From an uncultured Planctomycetales bacterium (GTDB lineage Bacteria; Omnitrophota; Gorgyraeia; Gygaellales; Profunditerraquicolaceae), in the NCBI GenBank assembly GCA_964542785.1, contig CAZIUK010000001.1:506862-570861 (forward strand): DNA of 64,000 nucleotides, read 5' to 3'. Position 1 is the first letter of the stretch, and each line of letters opens with the position of its first letter. Under the pieces are notes generated by a model. It made no database searches. It saw only the letters and a list, made by a program, of their open reading frames with translations, and had not been told where the DNA came from. A program made the position numbers and the translations under genes. Shown here one piece after another: positions 17,985 through 29,167 of this stretch.

Positions 17985-19307
17985 ATGGGAAGACGCTTGA
18001 TTGTAGTCTTAGCACTCGCCTTAGCAGTTGCTATTACGCTTAGCCCTGCTTTTGCCGAAGTGCAAAACGTCAAAGTAAGCGGAGACCTAAATATGTTCGG
18101 GGCTATCCGCAACAACTTTGGTTTGACTCGCGGCCCGGATGGTAACAGACGCAATAATGACGAAAGTTTTATTGCTACGCAGACTCGCGTAAAGATTGAC
18201 GCAGACTTAACAGATAATGTATCTGCGGTAGTCAGGTTAATTAACGAAAGAAAATGGAATAGCAATGAAGAGACTAAGATTGACTTGGATTTAGCATATG
18301 TAGGTTTAAAAGAATTCCTATACTCTCCGTTATCTCTTACCATAGGTCGTCAAGAACTAATTTATGGCAACAAACTCATTCTTGGCAAGAGTAGTGTAGG
18401 CTCTAGTGCTAGCGGCATACCAACAGACTTAAGCTTAAAAAAGTCCTTTGATGCTATAAAGGCAGTTCTTAACTATGACCCGTTGGTAGTTGATTTAATT
18501 TATGCTAAGATTAGCGAAGATAGTAGTAGAAGCGTAAAAGATGATGCTAACCTATACGGCATCTATGCATCCTATGATGTAAATAGGAAACTTAAAGCAG
18601 ACGTTTATGGGTTTTACAAAAAGGATAGGAATAAGGCTTCAGCTATATTCAAAAATGATACAGTCTTAACTGTCGGTTCCTTAATAACTGCTACGCCAAT
18701 AGATAACTTAAAGACATCCTTAGAAGCAGCTATGCAGTTTGGGAAACGCGCTATAGGCAAAACAACTACAAGAGACAGCAGAACAAAGGCATGGGCTTTG
18801 CAAGCAGCAGCTGAATATACCTTAAGTAACGTAAAGTTTACTCCTACAATCGGAGCATCCTTTACCCACCTAAGTGGCGACAAAGATGGAGAAAATGGAA
18901 AGAGGGCTTGGGATTCAATGTTCCAGGATCAAGCACTTAATAACATCACTAATGCTATAATTCCTTTTACAAACTTAAATGTCCTTAACCTAAAAGGAAG
19001 CATGAAGCCAACTGATGATGTTACCTTGTGCGCTAACTGGGGTTTTTATATTAGAGATAGAAAGAGCCCAGGCAGCATGATTAGTCCAGCAACTGATTCC
19101 AATGGTTCTTCTTCTTCATATGGCAATTACAATATGACCAGTAAGAAATACTTAGGCAATGCCTTGGACCTTACTGCTACTTATGATTACACTGAAGATG
19201 TTCAATTTGGTTTAACTACCGGATGGTTTATGCCTGGAAATGCATTCGAAAAAGATAACCGCCGCATAGCATCTCAGGTAATCGGTTCAATGAAAGTAAC
19301 ATTCTAA
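17985..19307 (+). CDS. outer-membrane beta-barrel protein (porin-like)
   Basis: Cleavable signal peptide (AFA-EV), alternating amphipathic beta-rich sequence and an aromatic C-terminal residue (…MKVTF); good RBS AAAGGAGGG. Confidence 0.5.
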   Translation: MGRRLIVVLALALAVAITLSPAFAEVQNVKVSGDLNMFGAIRNNFGLTRGPDGNRRNNDESFIATQTRVKIDADLTDNVSAVVRLINERKWNSNEETKIDLDLAYVGLKEFLYSPLSLTIGRQELIYGNKLILGKSSVGSSASGIPTDLSLKKSFDAIKAVLNYDPLVVDLIYAKISEDSSRSVKDDANLYGIYASYDVNRKLKADVYGFYKKDRNKASAIFKNDTVLTVGSLITATPIDNLKTSLEAAMQFGKRAIGKTTTRDSRTKAWALQAAAEYTLSNVKFTPTIGASFTHLSGDKDGENGKRAWDSMFQDQALNNITNAIIPFTNLNVLNLKGSMKPTDDVTLCANWGFYIRDRKSPGSMISPATDSNGSSSSYGNYNMTSKKYLGNALDLTATYDYTEDVQFGLTTGWFMPGNAFEKDNRRIASQVIGSMKVTF

Positions 19308-19385: not shown

Positions 19386-20939
19386 ATGCTTTACTTATCA
19401 TTAATATTTCACATGCACCAACCTTATTACAAAAACCTCTTAACAGAAGAGAGTCATCTGCCTTGGGTGCGCTTACACGGGACAAAAGACTACCTTGATA
19501 TGCTTGAAGTAATAACTAACTACCCAAAAATCCAGGCTACCTTTAATATCGTTCCTTCCTTAATTGAGCAGATAGAAGATTATGCTAACGAGACAGTAAA
19601 AGATACTTTTTTAGAGCTCTCTTACAAAAAAGCAGTAGATTTAACTCATCTAGATAAGGAATTTTTGCTTAAGAACTTTTTTTCCATAAATAAGGACCGG
19701 GTAATTTCTTTATTCCCCCGCTATTATGAGCTTTATTTTAAGAAACAAAAATCCCTAAGCTTTGATACTCAGGATTTTCTTGACCTACAAACCCTCTTTA
19801 ACTTAGCCTGGATAGACCCTATCTATAGAGAAAGATACGAACCCTTAAAAAACGCAATAAAAAAAGCCCGCTATTTTACTGAAGAAGAAAAGCGCGCAGT
19901 TTTAGATACCCAGATAGCTATACTAAAAAAGATACTCCCTGCTTATAAAAAGGCAGGGGAGGCAAGACAAATTGAGTTTAGCGTAACTCCTTATTATCAC
20001 CCTATACTTCCGCTTTTAGCTACTACCAATGCTGCAAAAGAGGCAAACCTACGCTCTCTATTACCAAAAAAAGAGTTTAAATATCCTCTTGATGCAAAGG
20101 CACATATAGAAAGCGCGGTCAATTTCTATAAAGAACGCTTAGGGTACAGTCCTCTTGGTATGTGGCCATCTGAAGAGGCAGTAAGTGAAAAGATACTCCC
20201 CTATATAATTGAATCCGGCATAAATTGGATAGTTACTGATGAAGCAATCCTCTTTAAGTCTTTAAATAAAAATAAAAGAGATACTAAATTTTTATACCAA
20301 CCCTATACCTTAAAAAGAAAAGAAGGGAATTTAAATATAATCTTTCGCGATACAAGCCTCTCTGATTTAATTGGCTTTGTCTATCATAATTGGGAGGCAA
20401 AAGCAGCAGCAACTGATTTTATCAACCACTTAGAGAATATAAATAAGGCATTTAAGGGTAAGGATCTATTAGTTGTAGTAGCTATGGACGGAGAAAACGC
20501 CTGGGAATACTTTGCTAATGACGGGCATTACTTTCTAAATGAGCTTTACAGCCAATTGTCAGACTCAAAAACAATTAAAACTACAACCGTCTCAGAATAT
20601 CTTAAAAATACCCCCCCAAAATTAAATATAAAACATCTATCCAGCGGCTCGTGGATTTATGGTAATTTTGACAAATGGATGAATAACGATTTAAAGACTC
20701 AATGTTGGGACTGGCTCCTTGATGCGCGCAAAAAAGTTGAAGAGGTAGAAAAAGCAAAAGATATTGACGAAAAAACAAAAAAACTAATCCTAAAGCAACT
20801 CCACATAGCTGAAGGAAGTGACTGGTTCTGGTGGGCAGGGGAGGACCCTGACGGCTCATTTGACCGCCTATACAAGATGCACTTAAATAACCTCTATAAG
20901 CTCCTACAAAAACCCCTTCCTGAATACTTAAAAGGATAG
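19386..20939 (+). CDS. glycoside hydrolase family 57 enzyme (glycogen branching enzyme or alpha-glucanotransferase type)
   Basis: N-terminal FHMHQPYY motif typical of GH57; 517 aa, close to the length of characterised GH57 branching enzymes. Confidence 0.75.
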   Translation: MLYLSLIFHMHQPYYKNLLTEESHLPWVRLHGTKDYLDMLEVITNYPKIQATFNIVPSLIEQIEDYANETVKDTFLELSYKKAVDLTHLDKEFLLKNFFSINKDRVISLFPRYYELYFKKQKSLSFDTQDFLDLQTLFNLAWIDPIYRERYEPLKNAIKKARYFTEEEKRAVLDTQIAILKKILPAYKKAGEARQIEFSVTPYYHPILPLLATTNAAKEANLRSLLPKKEFKYPLDAKAHIESAVNFYKERLGYSPLGMWPSEEAVSEKILPYIIESGINWIVTDEAILFKSLNKNKRDTKFLYQPYTLKRKEGNLNIIFRDTSLSDLIGFVYHNWEAKAAATDFINHLENINKAFKGKDLLVVVAMDGENAWEYFANDGHYFLNELYSQLSDSKTIKTTTVSEYLKNTPPKLNIKHLSSGSWIYGNFDKWMNNDLKTQCWDWLLDARKKVEEVEKAKDIDEKTKKLILKQLHIAEGSDWFWWAGEDPDGSFDRLYKMHLNNLYKLLQKPLPEYLKG

Positions 20940-20949
20940 GCTAATAAAG

Positions 20950-20977
20950 TTGACAAATCCTTTAAAAATGTTATACT
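20950..20977 (+). promoter_or_regulatory. sigma-70-like promoter (TTGACA, 16 nt spacer, TATACT) ahead of the pilus-like locus
   Basis: Hexamers read directly from the sequence at 20950-20955 and 20972-20977. Confidence 0.4.
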
Positions 20978-21125
20978 TAATAGATAAATAAGCATACTGG
21001 CTATTCGGTAATCCTTTGTTGGAGGACAAAGGAGCCATGCGTATCAACCGGATTTGACCAAGGTCAATTATGGGCAGTCCGGTTTTTTATTTTTTATTGC
21101 TTTTAAAAAAATATTTGCTAAAATT

Positions 21126-22523
21126 ATGCAGATAAAAAAGATGACAAAATTAAAAATATTTATTTTTACCGCTATAGCCATACTTATATTTTCTAATCAA
21201 GCATCGGCTATTTTTGATTTAAGCTACATCCTTACTGAAGGAGGGTTTAGGCTTGAATTTAACCAGAGGAATTTCTCTAGCGCCGTAACATTTACAGCTT
21301 ATAGCGATATCGCCAAGCGTTACGAGATACGCCAGCGTATTGATAGCCCATTAAGAAGCCGTGATAACCCTTCTATCGTTATCCGGGATAACTTTGTTGT
21401 AAGGGGGATAAGAGGCTCCAACAGATACGGGGACCTACGCATCCCTCCGACAGATACAACTGTACGTAATGACGAACTTATCTATGTCTCTACCCCAACA
21501 GGCAAGCAAGATTCATTTACCTTAGTTTACAGCATTATAAACCCCCAGACACTTACTCCCGGTTATTATACCGGCAGAATTGGCTTGATCTTAAAACCTA
21601 TTGATTCGGTTCAAGCACAAGTTACCAAAATTATAGATGTTTATGTTTCTATACATGATGACGGAACCTTGCCCTCTATAACCATAACCTCAGAAGAGAG
21701 TTTAAACACCCTTACTCTTAAGGCCAATAGTAATACTATGCGTAACACAGCTAATGCAATAGTCTCTATAGATGGTGGCTTTAGGGAGCCTTTTAAAATT
21801 ATGCAACTTGTTAACCTACCGATACAATCACAAGAGGGGAAAGTATTTGATTACAAAAATATCCTCTTTAATATTCTTGATGCAAAGGTAGGAGTAGGGA
21901 TAAACCAGCCGACCTTGTTTACTAATACCCCTCAAATAATTTATTCCTCTAAACCTGACGGTTCTTCTGATAAGGTATTTGCTGTAACATACTCTTTAGC
22001 AAACCCTTTTACAATCCCAGCAGGAAAATACCGTACACACATTCAGTATATACTTGAATCATCCGGAAAACAGGTAAATTTAGGAATGCTTAATCTTGAG
22101 ATAATTCAAGAGCGTATCTTTGAACTTTTAGTAACCCCTCAAGACCAACGCTATAGCATTGATTTTAATAATCTTAAACCCGGCGAAGGTCCGCATACAA
22201 ATGAAGTACTTATAGAGGTAAATACAAACACCAACAAAAGATACCAAGTCACGCAAGAGGTTATCTCTGACTTAACTACCTCTACAGGAGAAAAAATACC
22301 CTCAGAGAACTTCTTAATAAGAACCTTGCCAGTAAAAGAGACTAAGGGAAAAGTAAAGCTTACGGATAAATCACGGGTAGAAAAGGGAGGGAGACTTTTG
22401 TTCATCTCTGATAATAATGGGTCTTCTGATACCTTTAAGATAATCTATGAATTAAACTGCCCGTCAAATTTAAAGGCAGGCAATTATTCATCAAGGATAA
22501 CCTATACCTTAACTGAAATTTAA
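21126..22523 (+). CDS. secreted protein made of three tandem spore-coat-U/Csu-pilin-like domains (candidate tip or adhesin subunit)
   Basis: Signal peptide MTKLKIFIFTAIAILIFSNQASA; three internal repeats, each ending in a ..P(A)G.Y.(G/S).I.Y.L motif like the C-terminal strand of SCPU-type pilins; the ORF-track TTG start at 21054 sits inside a palindrome, so the ATG at 21126 is used. Confidence 0.45.
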   Translation: MQIKKMTKLKIFIFTAIAILIFSNQASAIFDLSYILTEGGFRLEFNQRNFSSAVTFTAYSDIAKRYEIRQRIDSPLRSRDNPSIVIRDNFVVRGIRGSNRYGDLRIPPTDTTVRNDELIYVSTPTGKQDSFTLVYSIINPQTLTPGYYTGRIGLILKPIDSVQAQVTKIIDVYVSIHDDGTLPSITITSEESLNTLTLKANSNTMRNTANAIVSIDGGFREPFKIMQLVNLPIQSQEGKVFDYKNILFNILDAKVGVGINQPTLFTNTPQIIYSSKPDGSSDKVFAVTYSLANPFTIPAGKYRTHIQYILESSGKQVNLGMLNLEIIQERIFELLVTPQDQRYSIDFNNLKPGEGPHTNEVLIEVNTNTNKRYQVTQEVISDLTTSTGEKIPSENFLIRTLPVKETKGKVKLTDKSRVEKGGRLLFISDNNGSSDTFKIIYELNCPSNLKAGNYSSRITYTLTEI

Positions 22524-22590
22524 AAAAGGAGTACAATGTGGATCTATTTAAAAAAATAAACAAAAATAAACCGGGAAAGGAGATGAAAAA

Positions 22591-23172
22591 ATGAAGAAGA
22601 TTGCTGTTTATATAACCGCCTTGATATTAACCGTATCTTTTGCCAATATTACATTAGCTGCAACAAGCCAATCAATTAACGTTAGTGCAACTGTACCTAC
22701 TACCACCAATGCAATGGCAGTCAATATAAGCAAAATTACAGGTTCTACCTGGATAACAGATACTGCCATTAATTTTGGCTCATTAGTTTTTGATGCTGAG
22801 AATAATATCTACATGCCTTCTGATGGAAGATATTATGCGGTAGATGTATACGTACAGGATAACACCGGACAAACTTGGACATTAACCCACACCCGTCAAT
22901 CGCTAAAAAGCGGAACTAACACCTTAGACAACAATGTTAACGTTACCTTTGCAAAACAAGGAAGTGAATCCGGAGTTGACCTATCTAAGGTAAGTTTTGC
23001 TAATAGTAATAACAAAGCTTACACAAAAACAGACTTAGGTACCGGAAACCACTTGCGCATATATTATGGCCTTGCAACAGGCTCAAAAGATGCCCCAGGA
23101 GCAAGCCCAATAGGCATAAATCAGCCTGCAGGAACATATACAGGGTCAGTAACTATAACCTTAACCCCATAA
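22591..23172 (+). CDS. spore-coat-U/Csu-type secreted pilin-like subunit (single domain)
   Basis: 193 aa; signal peptide; mature N-terminus SINVSATVPTT...INFGSLVFD and C-terminus PAGTYTGSVTITLTP follow the SCPU-domain pattern; RBS AAGGAG. Confidence 0.5.
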   Translation: MKKIAVYITALILTVSFANITLAATSQSINVSATVPTTTNAMAVNISKITGSTWITDTAINFGSLVFDAENNIYMPSDGRYYAVDVYVQDNTGQTWTLTHTRQSLKSGTNTLDNNVNVTFAKQGSESGVDLSKVSFANSNNKAYTKTDLGTGNHLRIYYGLATGSKDAPGASPIGINQPAGTYTGSVTITLTP

Positions 23173-23198
23173 ACAAGATAAAGAAGAAAGGGATAATT

Positions 23199-24074
23199 TT
23201 GTTTATCTTTCTACGCTTATCTTTATTTATTTGCATAATAGGAAGCTTTTTTGCTCCTTTGGCTACTGCAGAGAAGCTTCCTTTTATGAACCAGTCTAAG
23301 ATTAGGGTTATAGCCTCTCCCGAAGAGCGTGTCTTTGGCGAATTACTCCTGCAAAACCCTACGGATAAACCTAAAAATATTCGCCTCTACTTAGAAGACT
23401 GGCGCTATCTTCCGGATGCTACAGGCGCTAAAGAGTTTCTCCCTGCCTCTTCAACACCTCTTTCTGCTTGTCCTTGGATGGATTTTTCTCCTGGGGAAGT
23501 ACACATCCCTCCTTATGGTAAGCAAAGAATAAATTATTCTATATCTATCCCAAAGGAAGCCTCGGGAGCAAGATATGCCTCGCTATTCTTTGAAACATTA
23601 GTTACGGAAAAACTTTCTACCGATAAGATTGACTCCGCAGGTTTAGATATTACCGTAAGGGTAGCCACTCTTTTTTATGTGGAAGTAAAGGGCTCTGCGG
23701 AAAGAAAAGCTAAAATTGATAATTTAAAAATTGTAAAAGATAATAAAGATGCTTTAATTATTAGCCTTGATTTTGAAAATACTGGTAATACCGATATAAC
23801 TACCTCTGCAACCTTTAACCTTATGGATAAAAAAGGGAAAATATATGCCCGTGGGGCCTTCAATGAACTCTACACCTTCTTAGGGGGAAAGGGAATTCTG
23901 CAAGGAATATGGAAAGAGCAAATCCCCAAAGGTACTTACGACCTTGTAGTAACTATAGACCTTGGCAAAGCACTCATAGATGCAAAAATAGGTAGAGGCC
24001 CTGTGATTACTAAAGAGGCCCTGGTTACAATTGGAGAGAACAACCAAGTTGTGCAAATCGGCCAATTGCAGTAA
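23199..24074 (+). CDS. periplasmic protein, candidate pilus chaperone (assigned by gene order only)
   Basis: Signal peptide; about 260 aa mature and beta-rich; sits between the pilin-like and giant outer-membrane genes as in chaperone-usher loci; no ATG before residue 31, so the start is probably TTG. Confidence 0.3.
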   Translation: MFIFLRLSLFICIIGSFFAPLATAEKLPFMNQSKIRVIASPEERVFGELLLQNPTDKPKNIRLYLEDWRYLPDATGAKEFLPASSTPLSACPWMDFSPGEVHIPPYGKQRINYSISIPKEASGARYASLFFETLVTEKLSTDKIDSAGLDITVRVATLFYVEVKGSAERKAKIDNLKIVKDNKDALIISLDFENTGNTDITTSATFNLMDKKGKIYARGAFNELYTFLGGKGILQGIWKEQIPKGTYDLVVTIDLGKALIDAKIGRGPVITKEALVTIGENNQVVQIGQLQ

Positions 24075-26901
24075 TACTTCTTTAATTTTCCTACTTCTGT
24101 TTATCTGCCTAATAACTATCATTTTATCCCCAACCTATTTATTCGCCTATGGCCAAGTAGCTAAATTTATCTGCGAAAAAGGTATAGATTATTATAAGAA
24201 AGGAGAATTTACCAAAGCAGAGAGTGAATTTAAAAAAGCGCTTCTTGCCCAGCCTGATTATCCTCCTGCCATATATTATCTTCAGTTGATTGATGAAATA
24301 TTAGGTAACGCTAAAAAACCCTCTCATCCTACGCATAAGGCCCTAGCAATAGATAAAGGCTTAATAATAGATAGGGAAACGGCGATGGAAAAGTTTCTTT
24401 ATGATACTTATCCTGCTCCTATAATAAAAACTAAGCCTAAAACCTCTTTAGAGGCGCCACCTGAAACCCTAAAAAAAAATAACATAGCCATCCCAAAAAA
24501 ATCAAAAATAGACGAAAAAAAATCCGGATACTACTTTCTTGATGACCCCCGCTTCTTGCTTCAACAGCCGATACAAATAGAAGAGGGAAAGGATATCATC
24601 ATAAGAGGCAAAAATATCAGTCGTTTCCTTATTGTTCAGCCAGATATTTTACGTGCCGAAAAGTTAAACGACAATGACTTATCTGTTACGGCAAAGAATA
24701 TTGGCCTATCTTCGCTTATCATATGGGACGATAACGGGCGCAGAGTTATAGAATGCAGCGGTATTATGCCTATCCCGGAAGGGGTGATGGTAGAAGACCT
24801 TATGCGCAAAGAAAAGGAGAGGACAGAGAATTTTAAGCTTCGTTATAACTTAGATTGGTATTCCTATGAGTCCGGGCGAAGATTATCTTCTATTGAGCGC
24901 TCCGGAACTTACTCTTGGATACATAACTTACGCCTAAACGGCTTAAGCCCTTACGGGCTCCTTGATTCGGCAGTAACCTTACGCAAGCTTTCCACAACAA
25001 CAGACATGACCTATATTACAGCCGGGATAACAGACGGAAGGATAGGTAATTTTAAGGGTTTTAATCTAAGAGCAGGAGACTACAATTCTTATTTTAATAA
25101 TATGGCTATACCAAACGTTGATTTAAGAGGCGTATATTTTAATTCACCTGCTTTTGATAATAAACTTGATTATACTATATTTTGGGGCAGGGAAAATGGC
25201 GGAGGATACGGAATATTAGCTTATAACAATTTTGAGACCCTACATTCATTCTTAAGCGGATTTAACTTAAATTTTTCGCCCTTGCCTTGGCAAAGTTATA
25301 AAATTAGTGTAGCTTCCGGCTGGGGGCATGACCGGCAGGATTATCTTAAAAAATACGCTTATGACTTTATCGGAGATTGGAACTTTAAAAATTCTGCGTT
25401 TAGTTATGAAATAGCAAGCGACACAGAGAACCTTGCGCATCTATTGACCAGCCGTTATAGCAAGAATAACTTTAACGCCGACCTTCAACTTAGGGATGTG
25501 GATAAAGAATTTACCAGCATTACCGGTTCAGGCTGGCGGCAAGGAGAATTAGGCGCGCTATTTAATTTAAATTATATGCCCACAGAAAATCTTTCTATTA
25601 CCCAGCGCATAGATATTTACCGTGACCGGCTTTACCCTGCAGAAGGCAACCCCAAACGCTTCAATGAAGATTTAGATACTACGGTTACTTACCGTTTAGG
25701 GCCCCTTACTGCCGTTGAAGCAACATACACATTGCAAAATGATTTAGGCAAGATGTCTAAAACAAGATATCAATCTCCAGGAGTGGGGATAAATAAACTC
25801 TTTTTCTTTTTTGGCAGAGATATATCTACCTATATAAAATATTCGCATCAGGAGAGTAAAAACTATACTACTCCCAGCCTTAATTATACAAATGAAAAAA
25901 TATTCGGGGGAATCCGTTTTAAGCTTGCAGGAGCATTATATTACTTTCTTAATAAAGAGATAAATTGGCTTACTGAACGTTACTATGGAAATCACAACCG
26001 TCCGCATGTTACTGAAACCGGCTTAGATTGGTATGACCGTATAGGCGCATCTTCTTTCTGGGGCGCTCTGCGCTTTACCTACCGCGATGAAGAGAAAGCT
26101 AACTCTCCCTTGTCATTCCTATCAGGAGAAGATTATATAGAAGGCTACGGAGAACTTTCTTTTAAGCCTTACGACGGACAAGAACTCTTTGCCTCTTGCA
26201 GGGTAAGGAATATATGGAAAGAGAATAACTCTGCACAAAGCAGGATTGAGGCAACCTTTAACGCCGGGATGAGGCTTATGTGGGATACGGGGTTGCGTTG
26301 GGACGCTACCGCTAATATTCAAGGATATGTTTTTAAAGACTACAACTCTAATGGCTTAAGGGAGAAAGATGAGCCTCCTATATCAGGGGTAAAAATTTGG
26401 TTGGGGAAAAAAGAGTTTCAAATTACTGATGAATTCGGCTATTTTAAATTTCCTAAGGCGCGCGGAAAAAATGTTTACCTTACCCTTGATACAGCAACTT
26501 TACCTACAGGGTATATACTTACGGTCCCTGTAACCCAGGGGGTTCCGGTTGTTTCCGGGACTATCTCTAAGATCTATTTTGGCGCTACCTCACGTTCAGA
26601 GATCCGCGGTATAGTCTTTGAAGATACCAATGAAGATGGAGAATACTCCCCGGGAGAAGAAGGCATTGCAGAAATAGCTATAATCTTAGATAATGAGAAA
26701 AGAAGCGTTACTAACTCAGAAGGCAGATACATATATCCACAGGTTTCTTTAGGGGAACATGAGTTAACTGCTGATTTAAATACTATACCGGTTTATTATT
26801 TACCTTCGGTTGCCCTAAAGAAACAACTCTACCTTTATGAAGGAGATTCTTTTGTTTGGAATATACCCTTGCGTAGGATAGAAGAACAGGAGGGAGGTTA
26901 A
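24031..26901 (+). CDS. large outer-membrane protein, candidate atypical usher/secretin-like pore
   Basis: 956 aa; hydrophobic signal-like N-terminus; TPR-like segment; a region resembling the pilus-formation N domain of CpaC-type secretins (ISRFLIVQPDILRAEKLNDNDLSVTAKNIGLSSLIIWDDNGRRVIE); about 500 aa of Tyr/Gly/Trp-rich beta-barrel-like sequence; two C-terminal SdrD-B/Cna-B-like beta-sandwich repeats; no in-frame ATG in the first 118 codons. Confidence 0.4.
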   Translation: MERTTKLCKSANCSNTSLIFLLLFICLITIILSPTYLFAYGQVAKFICEKGIDYYKKGEFTKAESEFKKALLAQPDYPPAIYYLQLIDEILGNAKKPSHPTHKALAIDKGLIIDRETAMEKFLYDTYPAPIIKTKPKTSLEAPPETLKKNNIAIPKKSKIDEKKSGYYFLDDPRFLLQQPIQIEEGKDIIIRGKNISRFLIVQPDILRAEKLNDNDLSVTAKNIGLSSLIIWDDNGRRVIECSGIMPIPEGVMVEDLMRKEKERTENFKLRYNLDWYSYESGRRLSSIERSGTYSWIHNLRLNGLSPYGLLDSAVTLRKLSTTTDMTYITAGITDGRIGNFKGFNLRAGDYNSYFNNMAIPNVDLRGVYFNSPAFDNKLDYTIFWGRENGGGYGILAYNNFETLHSFLSGFNLNFSPLPWQSYKISVASGWGHDRQDYLKKYAYDFIGDWNFKNSAFSYEIASDTENLAHLLTSRYSKNNFNADLQLRDVDKEFTSITGSGWRQGELGALFNLNYMPTENLSITQRIDIYRDRLYPAEGNPKRFNEDLDTTVTYRLGPLTAVEATYTLQNDLGKMSKTRYQSPGVGINKLFFFFGRDISTYIKYSHQESKNYTTPSLNYTNEKIFGGIRFKLAGALYYFLNKEINWLTERYYGNHNRPHVTETGLDWYDRIGASSFWGALRFTYRDEEKANSPLSFLSGEDYIEGYGELSFKPYDGQELFASCRVRNIWKENNSAQSRIEATFNAGMRLMWDTGLRWDATANIQGYVFKDYNSNGLREKDEPPISGVKIWLGKKEFQITDEFGYFKFPKARGKNVYLTLDTATLPTGYILTVPVTQGVPVVSGTISKIYFGATSRSEIRGIVFEDTNEDGEYSPGEEGIAEIAIILDNEKRSVTNSEGRYIYPQVSLGEHELTADLNTIPVYYLPSVALKKQLYLYEGDSFVWNIPLRRIEEQEGG

Positions 26902-27194
26902 CGAGCATAAATAGTCTTTCTCTTAAAGGTGATCCTCCCTCCTGAATTCAGAGAAGATTCTTTTACCTCATCTTTTTTAATCATCTCTATTTTAAATGAA
27001 TTATCCAAATCCTTCTTCTCAATTTCTTTTGCCTGACTATCTTTAGTTAAATTATCCTGAGAAAGAAGAGGGGCATTAACCCCGGGTATAACCGGTATTA
27101 CGCAAGACATACCTATAGTTACGCTATCACCGGCCCATGCAAACGGCGCTACAAGAAGAAATATAATTAGTATAATAAATCCTTTTCTTCCCAT
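26898..27194 (-). CDS. small secreted hypothetical protein
   Basis: 98 aa with a signal peptide; GGAGGG Shine-Dalgarno 8 nt upstream; converges on the giant outer-membrane gene. Confidence 0.35.
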   Translation of the reverse strand: MGRKGFIILIIFLLVAPFAWAGDSVTIGMSCVIPVIPGVNAPLLSQDNLTKDSQAKEIEKKDLDNSFKIEMIKKDEVKESSLNSGGRITFKRKTIYAR

Positions 27195-27443
27195 CTTGTT
27201 AAGCCCTCCGCTTTTAACCGGGGCAACAAAAACCCCTAAAGGCTTCCTCTCTAGGGGTTATCTACTTTTTGGCAACGCAGCCCTCCAATTATATCGGAGC
27301 TGTCGCTTTGCGCCCCAGCATTACTGCTAGTTAGCCTTTTTCAAAAACTTAATCCTAATTATCAATAAAAGCATAACATATATTTATATCAATTTCAACC
27401 TCCTAAGAATTTTTTATCCTAAAGTCTTAAGTATTCTAAACTC

Positions 27444-27472
27444 TTGACAGGTAAAGGGTTTTATGCTATAAA
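27444..27472 (+). promoter_or_regulatory. sigma-70 consensus-like promoter (TTGACA, 17 nt spacer, TATAAA)
   Basis: Hexamers at 27444-27449 and 27467-27472; the TTG start in the ORF track is in fact the -35 hexamer. Confidence 0.5.
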
Positions 27473-27485
27473 ATTAAGAATTACG

Positions 27486-28046
27486 ATGGATAAAAAAGAA
27501 ATTTACGAACATCTGGCCAAGATTTATCTTGACGCTTCATCCAAGAAAAAAGAAAAGACCAAAAACCATTTAAGGCTTTATAATAATTTATTTATCATCG
27601 GTTTAGTCTTTTTGATTGGAACGGCCCTAACTCTATCCTATCTATCAAAAAATAAAAATCTTACATCTGAAACCGCACTATTTATCCTTAACGACCCGGC
27701 AAAGATAAACTTTAACTTTAACCCGGCAAAAAAAGAGTCCTTCACCATAAACCTAAATGGCTTAAGCTTAAGCCCCTTTAAAGCTTTAGCCTTTGCCGTA
27801 AAAAATACCGATAAAAACAGCAACGTTGCCTTACGGATTGAGCTTACCAATTCTTTTAAAGAAAAATCTGAGGTTTACCTAAAACAAATTCCGGCTAAAT
27901 GGGATGAATTTAAGATATCTTTCCTTGATTTTAAAAATATAAATGATTGGTCTAATATGCAAAGTATATCCTTTACGGTTGAAGAGTGGAACGCCCAAAA
28001 AAATAAAGGCATAGTTTATATAGATAACCTGCGTTTCTTAAAATGA
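27486..28046 (+). CDS. membrane-anchored protein with an extracytoplasmic beta-rich (possibly carbohydrate-binding-module-like) domain
   Basis: ATG at 27486; one TM helix (LFIIGLVFLIGTALTLSYL); C-terminal domain ends ...KGIVYIDNLRFLK, reminiscent of CBM/galactose-binding-like folds. Confidence 0.45.
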   Translation: MDKKEIYEHLAKIYLDASSKKKEKTKNHLRLYNNLFIIGLVFLIGTALTLSYLSKNKNLTSETALFILNDPAKINFNFNPAKKESFTINLNGLSLSPFKALAFAVKNTDKNSNVALRIELTNSFKEKSEVYLKQIPAKWDEFKISFLDFKNINDWSNMQSISFTVEEWNAQKNKGIVYIDNLRFLK

Positions 28047-28081: not shown

Positions 28082-29167
28082 ATGCGCATAATTTCTATTA
28101 CTAATCAAAAAGGCGGTTGCGGAAAGACAACCACGGCTGTTAACTTGGCAGCTTCACTATCTATAAACAATAAAAAAACTTTATTAATAGACCTCGATCC
28201 TCAGTCTCACGCAACCTTAGGTTTAAATATAAAATCATCCTTAAGTATTTATAACGTCCTTTCTAAAGTTTCACACCAAAAAGCAAAAATAGAAACTATT
28301 ATTCAAAACATAAGTCCTGACTTTGATATCGCCCCAAGCAACATAGTCCTAAGCACCTTAGAACAGGAGTTAGCCGGTGAGATAGGCAGGGAGTCGCGTT
28401 TAAACGAGGTATTAAAGGCTTTTAAGAATAATTACGATTATATTATTATTGACTGCCCTCCAAACTTAGGTATTTTAACCATAAATGCTATCCGTGCTTC
28501 TTCAGAGGTTATCATACCGGTTGAGGCAAGCAGGTTTTCTTTAGAAGGCTTAACTCAGCTTATCAGCATAATTGATTTAGTCCGCGACCGCTTAAGCCAC
28601 AGGGTAGATTTTAGAGTCTTAGTTACCAACTTCGACTCCCGTCTTGCGCATTCTTTTAAAATGCTTAAAAAAATCAAGGAGGACTTTAAAGAAAAGTTGT
28701 TTAGCAATATAATCCATGTTAATGTTAAGCTAAAAGAAGCGCAGAATCAAGGAAAGCACATTTTAAACTTTGATAAATACTGCCGCGGAGCAAAGGATTA
28801 TTTTAGCTTAGCAAGAGAGATAATTACTCAAGAAAAAATACCCACCCCAGCTTTAATCTTAGAAAAAAGAATGAAAGAGATTCTAAAAGAGCAACTACCG
28901 GGCTTAACAGAAATTGCCTTTTCGGTATTTGCCCCTGAAGCCCGTGATGTTTATCTGGTAGGCGAATTCAATAACTGGCAGATAAATGATTCCTCCCGAA
29001 TGACCCAAAATAACGGGACTTGGAGCAAAAAATTAAATCTAAATACCGGAAGATACCGTTATCGCTTTGTGGTAGATGGCAGCTGGATGGAAGATACCAA
29101 AAACCCAAATAAAGAGAACAATCCTTACGGATCTGTTGATTCCCTGCTTGAAGTTAAAACAAAATAA
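28082..29167 (+). CDS. ParA/MinD-family ATPase fused to a C-terminal AMPK-beta-type glycogen-binding domain (CBM48)
   Basis: Deviant Walker A NQKGGCGKTTTAVNLA and a ParA-like core of about 250 aa; the C-terminal 90 aa (VYLVGEFNNW...YRYRFVVDGSWMED...SLLEVK) matches the AMPK beta glycogen-binding domain motif VYLSGSFNNW...YKFFVDGQW. Confidence 0.8.
   Translation: MRIISITNQKGGCGKTTTAVNLAASLSINNKKTLLIDLDPQSHATLGLNIKSSLSIYNVLSKVSHQKAKIETIIQNISPDFDIAPSNIVLSTLEQELAGEIGRESRLNEVLKAFKNNYDYIIIDCPPNLGILTINAIRASSEVIIPVEASRFSLEGLTQLISIIDLVRDRLSHRVDFRVLVTNFDSRLAHSFKMLKKIKEDFKEKLFSNIIHVNVKLKEAQNQGKHILNFDKYCRGAKDYFSLAREIITQEKIPTPALILEKRMKEILKEQLPGLTEIAFSVFAPEARDVYLVGEFNNWQINDSSRMTQNNGTWSKKLNLNTGRYRYRFVVDGSWMEDTKNPNKENNPYGSVDSLLEVKTK

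Follow-up and report, generated by a model that had tools for sequence, protein, structure and literature searches.

The E. coli common pilus (EcpA-E) is built by an alternate-type chaperone-usher system, whose operon encodes the subunits, the two-domain chaperones EcpB and EcpE and a large outer-membrane (OM) β-barrel, the usher EcpC. Within a 64,000-nucleotide stretch of Omnitrophota DNA (the window), we have analysed a locus of five genes, g1 to g5, in which a comparable set of parts recurs. The g3 protein is homologous to EcpB and EcpE. As in Ecp, the OM barrel, g4, has one periplasmic domain before it and two β-sandwich domains after it, g2 has a subunit's N-terminal extension and C-terminal strand, and g1 corresponds to a multi-domain subunit without the extension. 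In contrast to EcpC, g4 is not homologous to ushers (0.6%), is modelled with about 26 rather than 24 strands and with no plug, and carries TPR helices and a secretin-type pil_N domain. The g1 and g2 proteins fall outside the known pilin families, and g5, a putative strand-only subunit under riboswitch control, is additional.

Two further systems invite comparison. In the WxL/WxLIP systems (DUF916-DUF3324) of Firmicutes, a hairpin strand inserted by WxLIP is predicted to complete the β-sandwich of the partner protein (PMC10599100). The g3 family aligns with EfmWxLIP1 over both domains; those systems are, however, monoderm, and their WxLIP, which a C-terminal helix anchors in the membrane, has peptidoglycan-associated WxL proteins as its binding partners, whereas g3 has no such helix and the present locus has an OM barrel but no WxL domain. 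Pam pili are reported to be exclusive to the Candidate Phyla Radiation (CPR), which is monoderm, and to use membrane-anchored chaperones and no trans-envelope machine (bioRxiv 10.64898/2026.03.03.709456). They resemble the fibre that we propose in being donor-strand-exchange assemblies whose Ig-like pilins have several domains and a linker strand, in their PapD/FimC-like chaperones, in having a tip and a strand-bearing terminator (a single-domain tip and PamR in Pam) and in their truncated C-terminal acceptor domain, to which the last domain of g1 recurrently shows a sub-threshold match (NF058581). The g1 match is nonetheless below the curated cut-off, and g2 is unmatched.

The likeness to the archaic Csu/SCPU pili is looser, being confined to gene order and short motifs in g2, and a family-level match is absent for every component. 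The c-di-GMP-I (GEMM-I) riboswitches control pilus and adhesin genes, for example pilA1 of C. difficile and gbpA of V. cholerae. The present locus likewise has an aptamer at the Rfam gathering score, with strong covariation and a terminator platform, before a surface-structure gene, but its target is a 98-aa strand-only protein and not a pilin or adhesin operon. In the Omnitrophota papers that we consulted, we found reports of type IVa and Tad pili only and none of fibres of this kind. On balance, we favour the view that the locus specifies an undescribed donor-strand-exchange surface fibre system, chaperone-usher-like with a different OM machine.

Organisation and conservation of the locus

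The first-pass annotation had described four co-directional genes, and all four ORFs are present. The fifth gene and its riboswitch lie just outside the interval then annotated and were missed.

20950-20977, forward strand: promoter-like site TTGACA-16 nt-TG-TATACT (11/12), upstream of g1
21126-22523, forward strand: g1, ORF from the first ATG, secreted 465-aa protein
22591-23172, forward strand: g2, ORF for a secreted 193-aa subunit, a β-sandwich in its AF2 model
23199-24074, forward strand: g3, ORF with TTG start, 291-aa periplasmic two-domain protein with signal peptide
24031-26901, forward strand: g4, ORF with TTG start, 956-aa outer-membrane protein
26898-27194, reverse strand: g5, conserved ORF after g4 and convergent to it, 98 aa

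The DNA has a GC content of ~0.37-0.38, and a Sec signal peptide can be read from the sequences of all five products. The site at 20950-20977, between the previous gene, which ends at 20939, and g1, is the top sigma-70-like match within 20700-27600, where the total of such matches is not above shuffled expectation; it is likely, as a candidate only, to be the promoter of a g1-g4 operon. The longest ORF for g1 starts at TTG 21054 (489 aa). For g4, a start at TTG 24049 gives 950 aa, matching the identical NCBI protein P0001; NCBI P0089 is a truncated 262-aa version of g3. TTG starts for g3 and g4, as first suggested, are supported: Shine-Dalgarno-like AAAGGGA and GGAGAG precede 23199 and 24049, respectively, the g3 signal peptide is conserved in homologues and is lost if the first ATG is used, and the overlap of g3 and g4 is found also in other loci. 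This overlap suggests translational coupling.

The synteny that was to be looked for in related genomes is indeed found. The order g1-g2-g3-g4 is kept in >60 species-level Omnitrophota genomes, down to ~30% g4 identity and between unrelated flanking genes, and the arrangement is far above chance expectation. The exact order g1+ g2+ g3+ g4+ g5- occurs at 43 loci, and most of the remaining loci have the same order with g2 or g2-g3 pairs duplicated. A relative of g4 is encoded in 145 species genomes. The five-gene locus is apparently specific to Omnitrophota.

The candidate chaperone g3

Comparison of the g3 profile with the PDB identified EcpB (5dfk_A, E 2.5e-5) and, with both domains aligned, EfmWxLIP1 (9i25/9i1y, E 6e-4). 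An hhalign comparison with EcpB and EcpE together gave 96.1% (E 2.9e-9), against 0.1% for a control with reversed sequence; the alignment covers the F1-G1 region and a common NTGN motif in domain 2. Residues R36 and R154 are nearly invariant. The family comprises 9085 cluster representatives at E<1e-3, and distant relatives of g3 lie above the Pfam threshold for WxLIP_PGBD (PF06030). PapD_N/PapD_C Pfam matches were not found in g3 and its homologues (36), nor was similarity of g3 to FimC-class chaperones. On these profile comparisons, g3 is a distant homologue both of the pilus chaperones EcpB/EcpE and of Gram-positive WxLIP, and it may well have a PapD-like fold. Its assignment to the chaperone position holds as regards kinship with EcpB/EcpE, though not as regards a PapD Pfam match. 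We propose that g3 acts as a chaperone.

The relationship to WxLIP raises the question of whether fibres are formed at all, since WxLIP is described as a partner-binding surface protein and not a pilus chaperone (PMC10599100). A non-polymeric display would have g3 as a scaffold that stabilises g1 and g2 and presents them on the cell surface as single adhesins, g4 as their translocon or anchor and g5 as a competing or regulatory peptide. The alignment with EfmWxLIP1 across both domains, the relatives above the WxLIP_PGBD threshold, the want of a significant pilin match for g2 and the silence of the consulted Omnitrophota papers on such fibres are all in keeping with this arrangement. However, g3 has no C-terminal membrane helix, the element that tethers WxLIP, and is closer to EcpB, a true pilus chaperone. 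The g2 extension, its copy in g5 and the co-variation of the two (see below) are hard to explain without inter-subunit strand-in-groove contact, and linkers after domains 1 and 2 only of g1 suggest a free terminal acceptor. We therefore regard display of single adhesins as unlikely, while taking it seriously.

The outer-membrane protein g4

In the model of g4, the following parts succeed one another after the signal peptide (residue numbers; the gene is on the forward strand).

41-91: TPR helices
94-164: disordered segment
167-245: pil_N β domain
254-266: helix
269-752: 26 consecutive β strands
760-864 and 883-949: two SdrD-B-like domains

Pfam places a TPR at 47-77, T2SS-T3SS_pil_N at 180-238 (E 9e-9) and two SdrD_B domains (E 2e-13), in agreement with the TPR, pil_N and paired C-terminal Cna-B/SdrD-B-like domains that had been read from the sequence. 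The presumed β-barrel appears in the model as an uninterrupted run of 26 strands. The protein had been called atypical for its position, and it is: the model has neither plug nor inserted domain, against 24 strands and a plug in established usher structures, and sequence homology to ushers was not found (0.6%). The domains stand in usher order, with an N-terminal β domain, the barrel and two C-terminal β-sandwich domains. A large β-barrel flanked by periplasmic domains in this order is thus supported by the model, and we propose that g4 is a translocation and assembly pore.

On a reading without fibres, the locus would encode a complex for transport or uptake across the OM. In such a complex, g4 would be a large gated porin, such as one for polymers, with its TPR as in exporters of the BcsC/PgaA/PelB type; g1 and g2 would bind substrate at the surface, and g3 would act in the periplasm as a binding or escort protein. 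However, genes for a glycosyltransferase, an ABC transporter or polysaccharide synthesis are absent from the conserved cassette, as are a TonB box and a plug, and the flanks vary. Moreover, g3 is related by homology to pilus chaperones, and the N-terminal strand that g2 and g5 have in common, with its co-variation, would have no role. We judge a transport function to be quite improbable.

The candidate subunits g1 and g2

The three tandem repeats reported for g1 are homologous segments (hhalign 99.0-99.7%, E 1e-18 to 1e-26) forming domains of ~130 aa at about 29-161, 184-315 and 334-464, and the C-terminal motifs of g1 and g2 are as originally given. The repeat unit consists of a core and a strand-like linker of ~18-20 aa. 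Linkers follow domains 1 and 2; domain 3 has none, with nothing after its last core strand, and g1 lacks a g2-type N-terminal extension. Linker strands after the first two domains and not the third are the pattern expected of a tip subunit, the role that we propose for g1, and suggest a free acceptor at its end. Homologues of g1 stand first in the cassette at 64 loci. NF058581, the Pam pilin C-terminal domain, which is strand-accepting, gives a sub-threshold match in 11 of 38 g1 homologues (best E 1e-7); for g1 of the window, the weak match has E 3.7e-5 and 23.8 bits against a curated cut-off of 55, and it falls on the last domain.

The AF2 model of g2 (pLDDT 89.5, pTM 0.80) confidently predicts a β-sandwich, the strands of which start at residue 41 and end with a strand at 184-192 (..AGTYTGSVTITLTP) that forms the C-terminus. 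Outside the sandwich in the model lies a 17-residue N-terminal extension, 24-40 (SQSINVSATVPTT..), with alternating hydrophobic residues. We found 213 homologues, and among the 120 matches listed all come from Omnitrophota or a plain 'bacterium'. As the most variable component, g2 has full-length relatives of ≤61% identity, and it is often duplicated, singly or as a g2-g3 pair; the co-duplication suggests a pairwise interaction of g2 and g3. The g2 profile found nothing in the PDB and no match to NF058581, its homology to the g1 domains is detectable at the last strand only, and a fold comparison gave no significant match to any pilin. Weak fold matches covering most of the chain are to CanX, TasA, FimI, FimG, CfaB and Caf1, which are donor-strand filament subunits. 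We propose g2 as the major fibre subunit.

These proteins had initially been labelled SCPU/Csu-type pilins. That label finds no support: PF05229 and DUF4402 are unmatched in 34 g2 and 38 g1 homologues, even at E≤1, and no SCPU, DUF4402, PapD or Usher Pfam match was found in g1-g4. A very divergent but true archaic pilus (sigma-clade, Csu/spore-coat-U-type) would account for the subunit-subunit-chaperone-OM protein gene order, for a chaperone homologous to a CU chaperone and for the g2 pattern 'VSATVP ... INFG ... AGTYTGSVTITL', which is reminiscent of SCPU-type subunits; it is largely refuted by the absence of all four families from 34 g2, 38 g1, 36 g3 and 87 g4 homologues, by the 0.6% of g4 against ushers and by 26 strands without a plug in place of 24 with one, and we give it hardly any credence. 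The general idea of a divergent or hybrid chaperone-usher-like fibre locus is supported by the EcpB/EcpE-related g3, the barrel of g4 in usher order and the extension and sandwich of g2.

g5 and its riboswitch

The g5 protein consists of a signal peptide, a g2-like N-terminal strand, GDSVTIGMSCVIPVIPGVNAP, a charged low-complexity linker and a conserved C-terminus, ..KTIYAR. In 73 loci, g5 directly follows g4 and is encoded on the other strand. A jackhmmer search with g5 as query recovered 80 g2 ORFs, the match lying in the N-terminal segment. The similarity of cognate g5 and g2 N-termini is 33.2, compared with 26.6 for non-cognate pairs and 19.6+-4.4 for shuffled segments (permutation p 2e-4), and the two strands co-vary clade by clade. 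We propose that g5 is a strand-only terminator or cap subunit. Three elements precede it.

27231-27259, reverse strand: intrinsic-terminator-like hairpin and U tract, AACCCCTAGAGAGGAAGCCTTTAGGGGTT/TTTGTT, between aptamer and g5
27267-27345, reverse strand: c-di-GMP-I-clan riboswitch aptamer in the g5 leader, Rfam RF03167
27370-27398, reverse strand: promoter-like site TTGAAA-17 nt-TG-TATGCT, consensus match 9/12, upstream of the aptamer

The aptamer matches RF03167 over its full length with 60.9 bits (gathering score 59; E 7e-13). Seven of nine diverse loci have a c-di-GMP-I-clan aptamer at gathering score, and a purpose-built covariance model places one upstream of g5 in 68/73 loci. In the alignment, 95.3% of cells are paired and 18 of 23 pairs show double changes, a result matched by 0/500 shuffles. 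The best-scoring model for the aptamer of the window is the GGC variant, with c-di-GMP as the putative ligand. From its sequence context, the hairpin at 27231-27259 appears to be the expression platform: an equivalent with a U tract lies ≤170 nt from the aptamer in 64/69 leaders, and its 5' arm is able to pair with the P2-3'/junction segment GCUGGGGC of the aptamer, a pairing that co-varies across loci. Promoter matches of the type at 27370-27398 are not more numerous than in shuffled sequence. At most loci, the riboswitch does not control the structural operon.

Expression in Ca. Velamenicoccus archaeovorus

Orthologues of g1, g2 and g3 are clearly detected in the metaproteome of V. archaeovorus. 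Among g1-g4, the g2 orthologue, QAT17154, has the top mRNA level (110 TPM), and its protein signal is the most evenly spread over the fractions. The g5 orthologue, QAT17151, has an mRNA level of 2991 TPM, ~30 times the mean per gene (199,496 TPM over 1,936 CDS, about 103 TPM per CDS); g5 protein was not detected in the metaproteome. Two observations here speak against a fibre. The g5 mRNA level is high for a terminator subunit, of which few copies would be expected, and the g4 orthologue is barely detected as protein (0-1.5 ppm).

A model for fibre assembly

In the donor-strand-exchange fibre that we favour, g3 would capture subunits in the periplasm by β-strand complementation and hand them to g4, an OM barrel of about 26 strands, in which the pil_N domain would take the position of the usher N-terminal domain and the SdrD-B domains those of the usher's two C-terminal domains. 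Exported first, g1 would form the tip; in domains 1 and 2, the following linker strand would complete the fold in cis, and domain 3, ending at its last core strand, would need a strand in trans. The g2 subunits would then join singly, the N-terminal extension of each entering the preceding subunit.

Having an N-terminal strand of the g2 type and no globular body, g5 could only cap the last subunit and would therefore terminate fibre growth; perhaps it also anchors the fibre or blocks assembly. It would have its own transcript, governed by a c-di-GMP-I riboswitch that has a terminator platform and is probably an OFF switch, so that the second messenger would set the growth, length or retention of the fibre. 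If this is true, Omnitrophota have a new kind of OM pore and a tiny, riboswitch-switched subunit that consists of a strand only.

A conserved five-gene cassette in Omnitrophota

ORF calling across the locus, where GC is about 37–38% as in the remainder of the window, recovered in place all four of the co-directional genes proposed in the first-pass annotation, and added a fifth on the opposite strand.

Genes of the cassette (window coordinates, strand, product)
21126–22523, + strand: g1, 465 aa counted from the first ATG
22591–23172, + strand: g2, 193 aa
23199–24074, + strand: g3, 291 aa, TTG start
24031–26901, + strand: g4, 956 aa, TTG start
26898–27194, − strand: g5, 98 aa, convergent with g4, the stop of which it overlaps by 4 nt

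The TTG starts originally read for g3 and g4 are credible because Shine–Dalgarno-like sequences lie upstream of them, the g3 signal peptide is conserved in homologues and would be lost if translation began at the first ATG, and the g3/g4 overlap is present in other loci as well. The NCBI record identical to g3 (P0089, 262 aa) begins at an internal ATG, omitting window positions 23199–23285; its start has probably been mis-called, since this version is missing the conserved signal peptide. The NCBI protein identical to g4 is 950 aa long, matching a start at TTG 24049, and an exact look-up of the window's own g4 returned no record.

A distribution scan using one genome per GTDB species identified a relative of g4 in 145 species genomes, the figure for the cassette being at least 145. 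Of these genomes, 80 were retrieved; all are Omnitrophota or MAGs recorded under another name, and one is the complete genome of Ca. Velamenicoccus archaeovorus LiM. Wherever the source names the organism, homologues of g2, g3 and g4 belong to Candidatus Omnitrophota. ORF calls from every locus were searched with the proteins of the window. The exact order g1+ g2+ g3+ g4+ g5− is found in 43 loci, and g5 directly follows g4 in 73; most of the remaining complete loci have only extra copies of g2 or extra g2–g3 pairs. The synteny thus recurs while the flanking genes vary from locus to locus, and we conclude that the locus is a conserved cassette of five genes, not four. In L039, L041, L053, L058 and L060 are found g2–g3 duplications of both genes together, with three pairs in L060, and g2 alone is duplicated in other genomes. 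The paired duplication suggests dedicated chaperone–subunit pairs.

Several neighbouring features were noted. A six-codon mini-ORF (21030–21057, + strand; ATG CGT ATC AAC CGG ATT TGA) lies between a promoter-like site and g1; it has a strong AAAGGAG ribosome-binding site and may be a leader peptide or a chance occurrence. Upstream of the cassette, 17985–19307 (+ strand) encodes a secreted 440-aa protein that weakly matches an LbtU-type porin; it is probably a further outer-membrane barrel and as such favours a diderm envelope. A 200-aa ORF at 27444–28046 was rejected as a cassette member, having a homologue in no other locus. At 28082–29167 (+ strand) lies an unusual fusion, a ParA/MinD-type ATPase of 361 aa, which over its last 90 or so residues matches both a T9SS plug model and the glycogen-binding N-terminal region of GlgB; it adjoins a 200-aa membrane protein with a weak CBM11-like match.

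The cassette proteins are annotated only as hypothetical, save for one wrong RNA helicase label. The protein concerned is the V. archaeovorus g1 orthologue QAT17155.1 (L077:2624–4153), called 'ATP-dependent RNA helicase DBP9' in GenBank and UniRef and hypothetical in RefSeq. The helicase name looks like an annotation error, because QAT17155.1 has a signal peptide and three g1-type domains.

g3 is a distant relative of the Ecp chaperones by profile comparison

No Pfam domain was found in g1, g2 or g3, and the PapD families PF00345 and PF02753 are absent from g3 and 36 homologues at E ≤ 1. Nevertheless, the best PDB match of a profile of 36 g3 homologues is the solved fimbrial chaperone EcpB (E 0.002). 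With a broader profile of 96 representatives, EcpB is matched at E 2.5e-5, and the solved structure of EfmWxLIP1 is aligned across both domains at E 6e-4. Chaperone sequences of E. coli K-12, taken from annotated records, were compared with the g3 profiles by hhalign. EcpB and EcpE together gave a probability of 87.6% (E 3.5e-6) with the 36-homologue profile, signal peptides having been removed, and 96.1% (E 2.9e-9) with the broader one, in an alignment spanning the F1–G1 region of domain 1 and the NTGN motif of domain 2. The reversed-sequence control gave 0.1%, and the FimC-class chaperones FimC, YadV and SfmC showed no similarity. On the strength of these profiles, g3 is a significant distant homologue of the chaperone–usher chaperones EcpB and EcpE. 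Two arginines, R36 in the first strand and R154 in a G1-like strand, are nearly invariant in the g3 family; by analogy with R8 and K112 of PapD, they may clamp the C-terminus of the subunit.

The family is very large, with 9085 cluster representatives at E < 1e-3 in an exhaustive HMM search, and its distant members P0439, P0437 and P0451 pass the Pfam threshold for WxLIP_PGBD (PF06030), a domain of the WxLIP surface proteins of Firmicutes (PMC10599100). Proper WxLIP proteins have PF06030 and PF11797 (DUF916 and DUF3324) and a transmembrane helix at the C-terminus. The window's g3 matches neither Pfam domain, one of its 36 close homologues matches at E 0.009, and its C-terminus is without a hydrophobic helix. 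We therefore rejected g3 as a WxLIP protein proper; with no transmembrane helix, and with matches confined to relatives and the profile, the relationship holds at the level of the superfamily only.

A 4.4-kb metagenome contig (L090:139–2987) encodes a tandem-duplicated g3-like protein of 531 aa that passes the WxLIP_PGBD threshold. Its gene overlaps the start of a true secretin gene (PF00263, E 7e-43), which is followed by that of an LVIVD-repeat protein, an arrangement that may be a secretin-coupled variant of the system. Together with the secretin-type pil_N domain of g4 (see below), this overlap suggests that the g3-type chaperone family can be paired with different outer-membrane conduits.

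Candidate subunits g2 and g1

The Csu/spore-coat-U label first attached to the small proteins is unsupported, and a Csu/SCPU system is rejected, since SCPU (PF05229) and DUF4402 gave no Pfam match at E ≤ 1 in g2, g1 or the 34–38 homologues of each. The model of g2 (pLDDT 89.5, pTM 0.80) is a beta-sandwich extending from residue 41 to a C-terminal strand at 184–192. Residues 24–40, the mature N-terminus (SQSINVSATVPTT..), lie outside any strand in the model, and hydrophobic residues alternate along them in the family alignment. Classical chaperone–usher subunits are defined by an incomplete Ig fold that lacks the G strand and by an N-terminal donor extension; of these, the g2 model shows an extension ahead of the sandwich, with the last strand at the C-terminus. 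The g2 profile found no match among PDB sequences, and a 42% hhalign probability against eleven E. coli pilins was driven by the signal peptide, so that an E. coli-type pilin was not accepted. Nor is g2 a single g1 repeat: only the last strand aligns (17 columns, 34%), and the overlap of g1 and g2 in jackhmmer searches is for this reason probably drift.

The three tandem repeats claimed for g1 are borne out by hhalign, in which the segments are mutually homologous at 99.0–99.7%. In the alignments, each repeat unit is a core of about 130 residues followed by a strand-like linker of 18–20 residues, which reads ..AQVTKIIDVYVSI.. in the first unit and ..KQVNLGMLNLEII.. in the second. Domain 3 stops two residues past its last core strand, and an N-terminal extension of the g2 type is absent; by the logic of the repeat, no last strand would follow domain 3. 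Against NF058581, the Pam pilin C-terminal domain, g1 reaches 23.8 bits (E 3.7e-5), short of the curated cut-off of 55 bits. Sub-threshold matches to this model fall in the last g1 domain in 11 of 38 homologues (E ≤ 0.01, best 1e-7), and in none of 34 g2 homologues. The NF058581 domain is the strand-accepting domain of the recently described Pam pili of CPR bacteria (bioRxiv 10.64898/2026.03.03.709456). The sole PDB match of the g1 profile, non-significant at E 0.08, is an engineered, donor-strand-complemented CfaE–CfaB fusion. We infer that g1 is a tip subunit in which domains 1 and 2 would be completed in cis and domain 3 would need a strand in trans.

g4 is predicted to form a plug-less barrel unrelated to ushers

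The TPR, T2SS-T3SS_pil_N and two SdrD_B domains initially read in g4 were confirmed by Pfam. The AlphaFold2 model has a mean pLDDT of 81, rising above 90 through the barrel.

Parts of the g4 model in order (AlphaFold2, residue numbers)
N-terminus: signal helix
41–91: TPR helices, then a disordered stretch
167–245: eight-strand pil_N beta domain, then one helix
269–752: 26 consecutive strands with no inserted domain
760–864: first beta-sandwich domain
883–949: second beta-sandwich domain

In the usher family (PF00577), a plug sits inside a barrel of 24 strands, which is preceded by one N-terminal domain and followed by two C-terminal ones. The suspicion that g4 does not resemble a canonical usher proved correct. 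Usher, PapC_N and PapC_C have no Pfam match in g4 or 87 homologues, comparison with the four E. coli ushers FimD, EcpC, HtrE and SfmD gave 0.6% by hhalign, that is, no similarity, and the 26 strands of the model run on without an inserted plug; on these grounds an usher is ruled out. What g4 has in common with ushers is only the order of domain, barrel and two further domains. As the number of strands is even, both termini would lie on one side of the membrane, so that the layout mirrors that of an usher with neither homology nor plug. A polysaccharide exporter was retained solely as a weak rival reading of g4.

g5 carries the g2 extension on a small protein of its own

g5 comprises a signal peptide, the segment GDSVTIGMSCVIPVIPGVNAP, a charged variable linker and a conserved extreme C-terminus, ..TIY[ST]R, which in the window reads ..TIYAR. 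An iterative search seeded with g5 retrieved 80 g2 proteins through their N-terminal segment. The local alignment score of g5 with the N-terminal segment of its cognate g2 is 33.2, against 26.6 for non-cognate pairs and 19.6 ± 4.4 for shuffled g5 segments, with a permutation p of 2e-4, and the two segments change together between clades.

Segments of g5 and g2 in two loci
L001: g5 GTASCIMPQLLEI; g2 GAASATVPQVLEF
L078: g5 GSASCFMPYQLEFE; g2 GSASVTVPQFMEFA

Judged by this N-terminal similarity and co-variation, g5 is the g2 extension without the g2 body. A lipoprotein was discounted, the Cys of g5 being outside any lipobox and replaced by Leu, Ala or Val in homologues.

A variant cassette without g1 occurs at L091:6559–13223 (GCA_018812485.1). 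It encodes two small proteins (188 and 158 aa), a doubled g3 (568 aa), a g4-like protein of 995 aa with pil_N matched in two stretches and SdrD_B in three, and a convergent gene product of 115 aa, and it is flanked by aptamers on both sides.

A predicted c-di-GMP-I-clan riboswitch precedes g5

Features of the g5 leader (window coordinates, strand)
27231–27398, − strand: leader with aptamer, terminator-like hairpin and promoter-like site
27267–27345, − strand: c-di-GMP-I-clan aptamer, Rfam RF03167, full-length, 60.9 bits against a gathering score of 59
27259–27231, − strand: terminator-like hairpin and U tract after the aptamer, followed by the ribosome-binding site

RF03167 or RF01051 reaches its gathering score in seven of nine other diverse loci. 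Our own covariance model, built from the loci whose aptamers reached the gathering score, places an aptamer ahead of g5, in the same orientation, in 68 of 73 loci, V. archaeovorus being one of them. In the alignment 95.3% of cells are paired and 18 of 23 pairs show compensatory double changes; none of 500 shuffles scored as high, and slid controls gave 28–50%. We assign the element, as a predicted member, to the c-di-GMP-I riboswitch clan (Rfam CL00126). The best-scoring model in the window is the GGC variant of this clan, on whose ligand the literature searched states nothing.

Of 69 leaders, 64 have the terminator hairpin after the aptamer. For the 5′ arm of the hairpin the best pairing partner is the P2-3′/junction segment of the aptamer, GCUGGGGC, at a mean of −9.9 kcal/mol compared with −6.6 kcal/mol for shuffled arms, and the pairing has co-varying extensions in L042, L052, L024 and L091. 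Such complementarity is what an antiterminator broken up by ligand binding would show, and we therefore tentatively favour an OFF switch. No aptamer was found upstream of g1 in the window by covariance-model search. Five loci have a second aptamer, placed ahead of the gene that opens the structural operon; both arms of the cassette can therefore be under the switch.

Second aptamers (own covariance model, all + strand)
L083:1977–2089
L041:277–418
L024:1407–1541
L032:1692–1795
L091:6559–6652

Expression in V. archaeovorus

Orthologues were identified by exact match for g1 (QAT17155), g3 (QAT17153) and g5 (QAT17151), and by position for g2 (QAT17154) and g4 (QAT17152). The values for mRNA (TPM) and protein (riBAQ ppm) are those of the supplementary table of PMC12583861, and establish that the cassette is expressed.

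Expression of the cassette (PMC12583861; protein in 10kS cells / 100S aggregates / 100S cells)
g1: mRNA 21 TPM; protein 93 / 27 / 96 ppm
g2: mRNA 110 TPM; protein 151 / 135 / 128 ppm
g3: mRNA 12 TPM; protein 44 / 53 / 158 ppm
g4: mRNA 18 TPM; protein 0.5 / 0 / 1.5 ppm
g5: mRNA 2991 TPM; protein not detected

Of g1–g4, g2 is the most abundant as mRNA and the most uniform across fractions as protein, and its level is held in the aggregate fraction while the organism's total signal drops about threefold. This is compatible with material stuck to aggregates, and is only a hint. With so high an mRNA level, g5 is more readily seen as inhibiting or capping the subunit pool than as an anchor used once per fibre.

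A model for the cassette and its relation to known systems

We are confident that the locus is a conserved and expressed envelope or surface system, and consider it somewhat probable that this system is a strand-exchange fibre. In the proposed mechanism, g3 would hold the subunits by strand complementation after Sec export, and the g3–subunit complexes would dock on the periplasmic domains of g4. g1 would enter first, as the tip, and g2 would then polymerise, each N-terminal extension being inserted into the preceding subunit. g5 would end chains, and could only do so, since it has a donor strand and no acceptor; the conserved strand at its C-terminus may serve as the minimal element by which g3 can handle it. 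Through riboswitch control of g5, c-di-GMP would adjust the length, retention or assembly of the fibre, and if the switch is of the OFF type, high c-di-GMP would remove the cap.

The proposed system would work in the manner of a chaperone–usher pilus, and the Ecp family has a chaperone homologous to g3; by the definition of that class, g4 is no usher, and the subunits match no known pilin family. Pam pili have membrane-anchored chaperones and no outer-membrane component, whereas the cassette has the outer-membrane barrel g4 and a g3 without the C-terminal hydrophobic helix found in both WxLIP and Pam chaperones. With g1 below the NF058581 cut-off, g2 homologues unmatched and a barrel present, the cassette was rejected as a Pam system. 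WxLIP touches the cassette at g3 and the CPR Pam pili at domain 3 of g1, and neither system has an outer-membrane machine.

Full-text literature searches found no description of the cassette. The Omnitrophota papers searched for such terms mention only type IVa and Tad pili, and what is known of host attachment comes solely from inventories of type IV and Tad pilus genes. Strand-exchange fibres are of a known kind; we could not find a description of the non-usher barrel or of the riboswitch-controlled strand-only subunit. It is conceivable, at rather less than even chances, that the cassette represents an unrecognised diderm pathway of fibre assembly by donor-strand exchange, in which a chaperone of the EcpB/WxLIP superfamily is combined with a non-usher, plug-less barrel of about 26 strands bearing a secretin-type pil_N docking domain, and in which growth is ended or blocked by a minimal subunit that has nothing beyond a donor strand and a short strand at the C-terminus, and whose supply a c-di-GMP riboswitch sets directly.

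Should the locus indeed build such a fibre, an outer-membrane protein with no relation to ushers could serve for the assembly of strand-exchange pili, and the PapD/EcpB-type chaperone fold would be part of a far larger family, the 9085 clusters of which reach the WxLIP proteins of Firmicutes. The c-di-GMP riboswitch would control the fibre by dosing a chain-capping peptide, not by switching the structural genes. The cassette is made as protein in the one enrichment-cultured species, V. archaeovorus. Omnitrophota are abundant, uncultured and ultra-small, and are thought to be epibionts or predators. The wider pathway, if true, would provide an evolutionary link between the chaperones of diderm chaperone–usher systems and monoderm systems of the WxLIP and Pam type, and would give predatory or epibiotic Omnitrophota an attachment fibre tuned by a second messenger.
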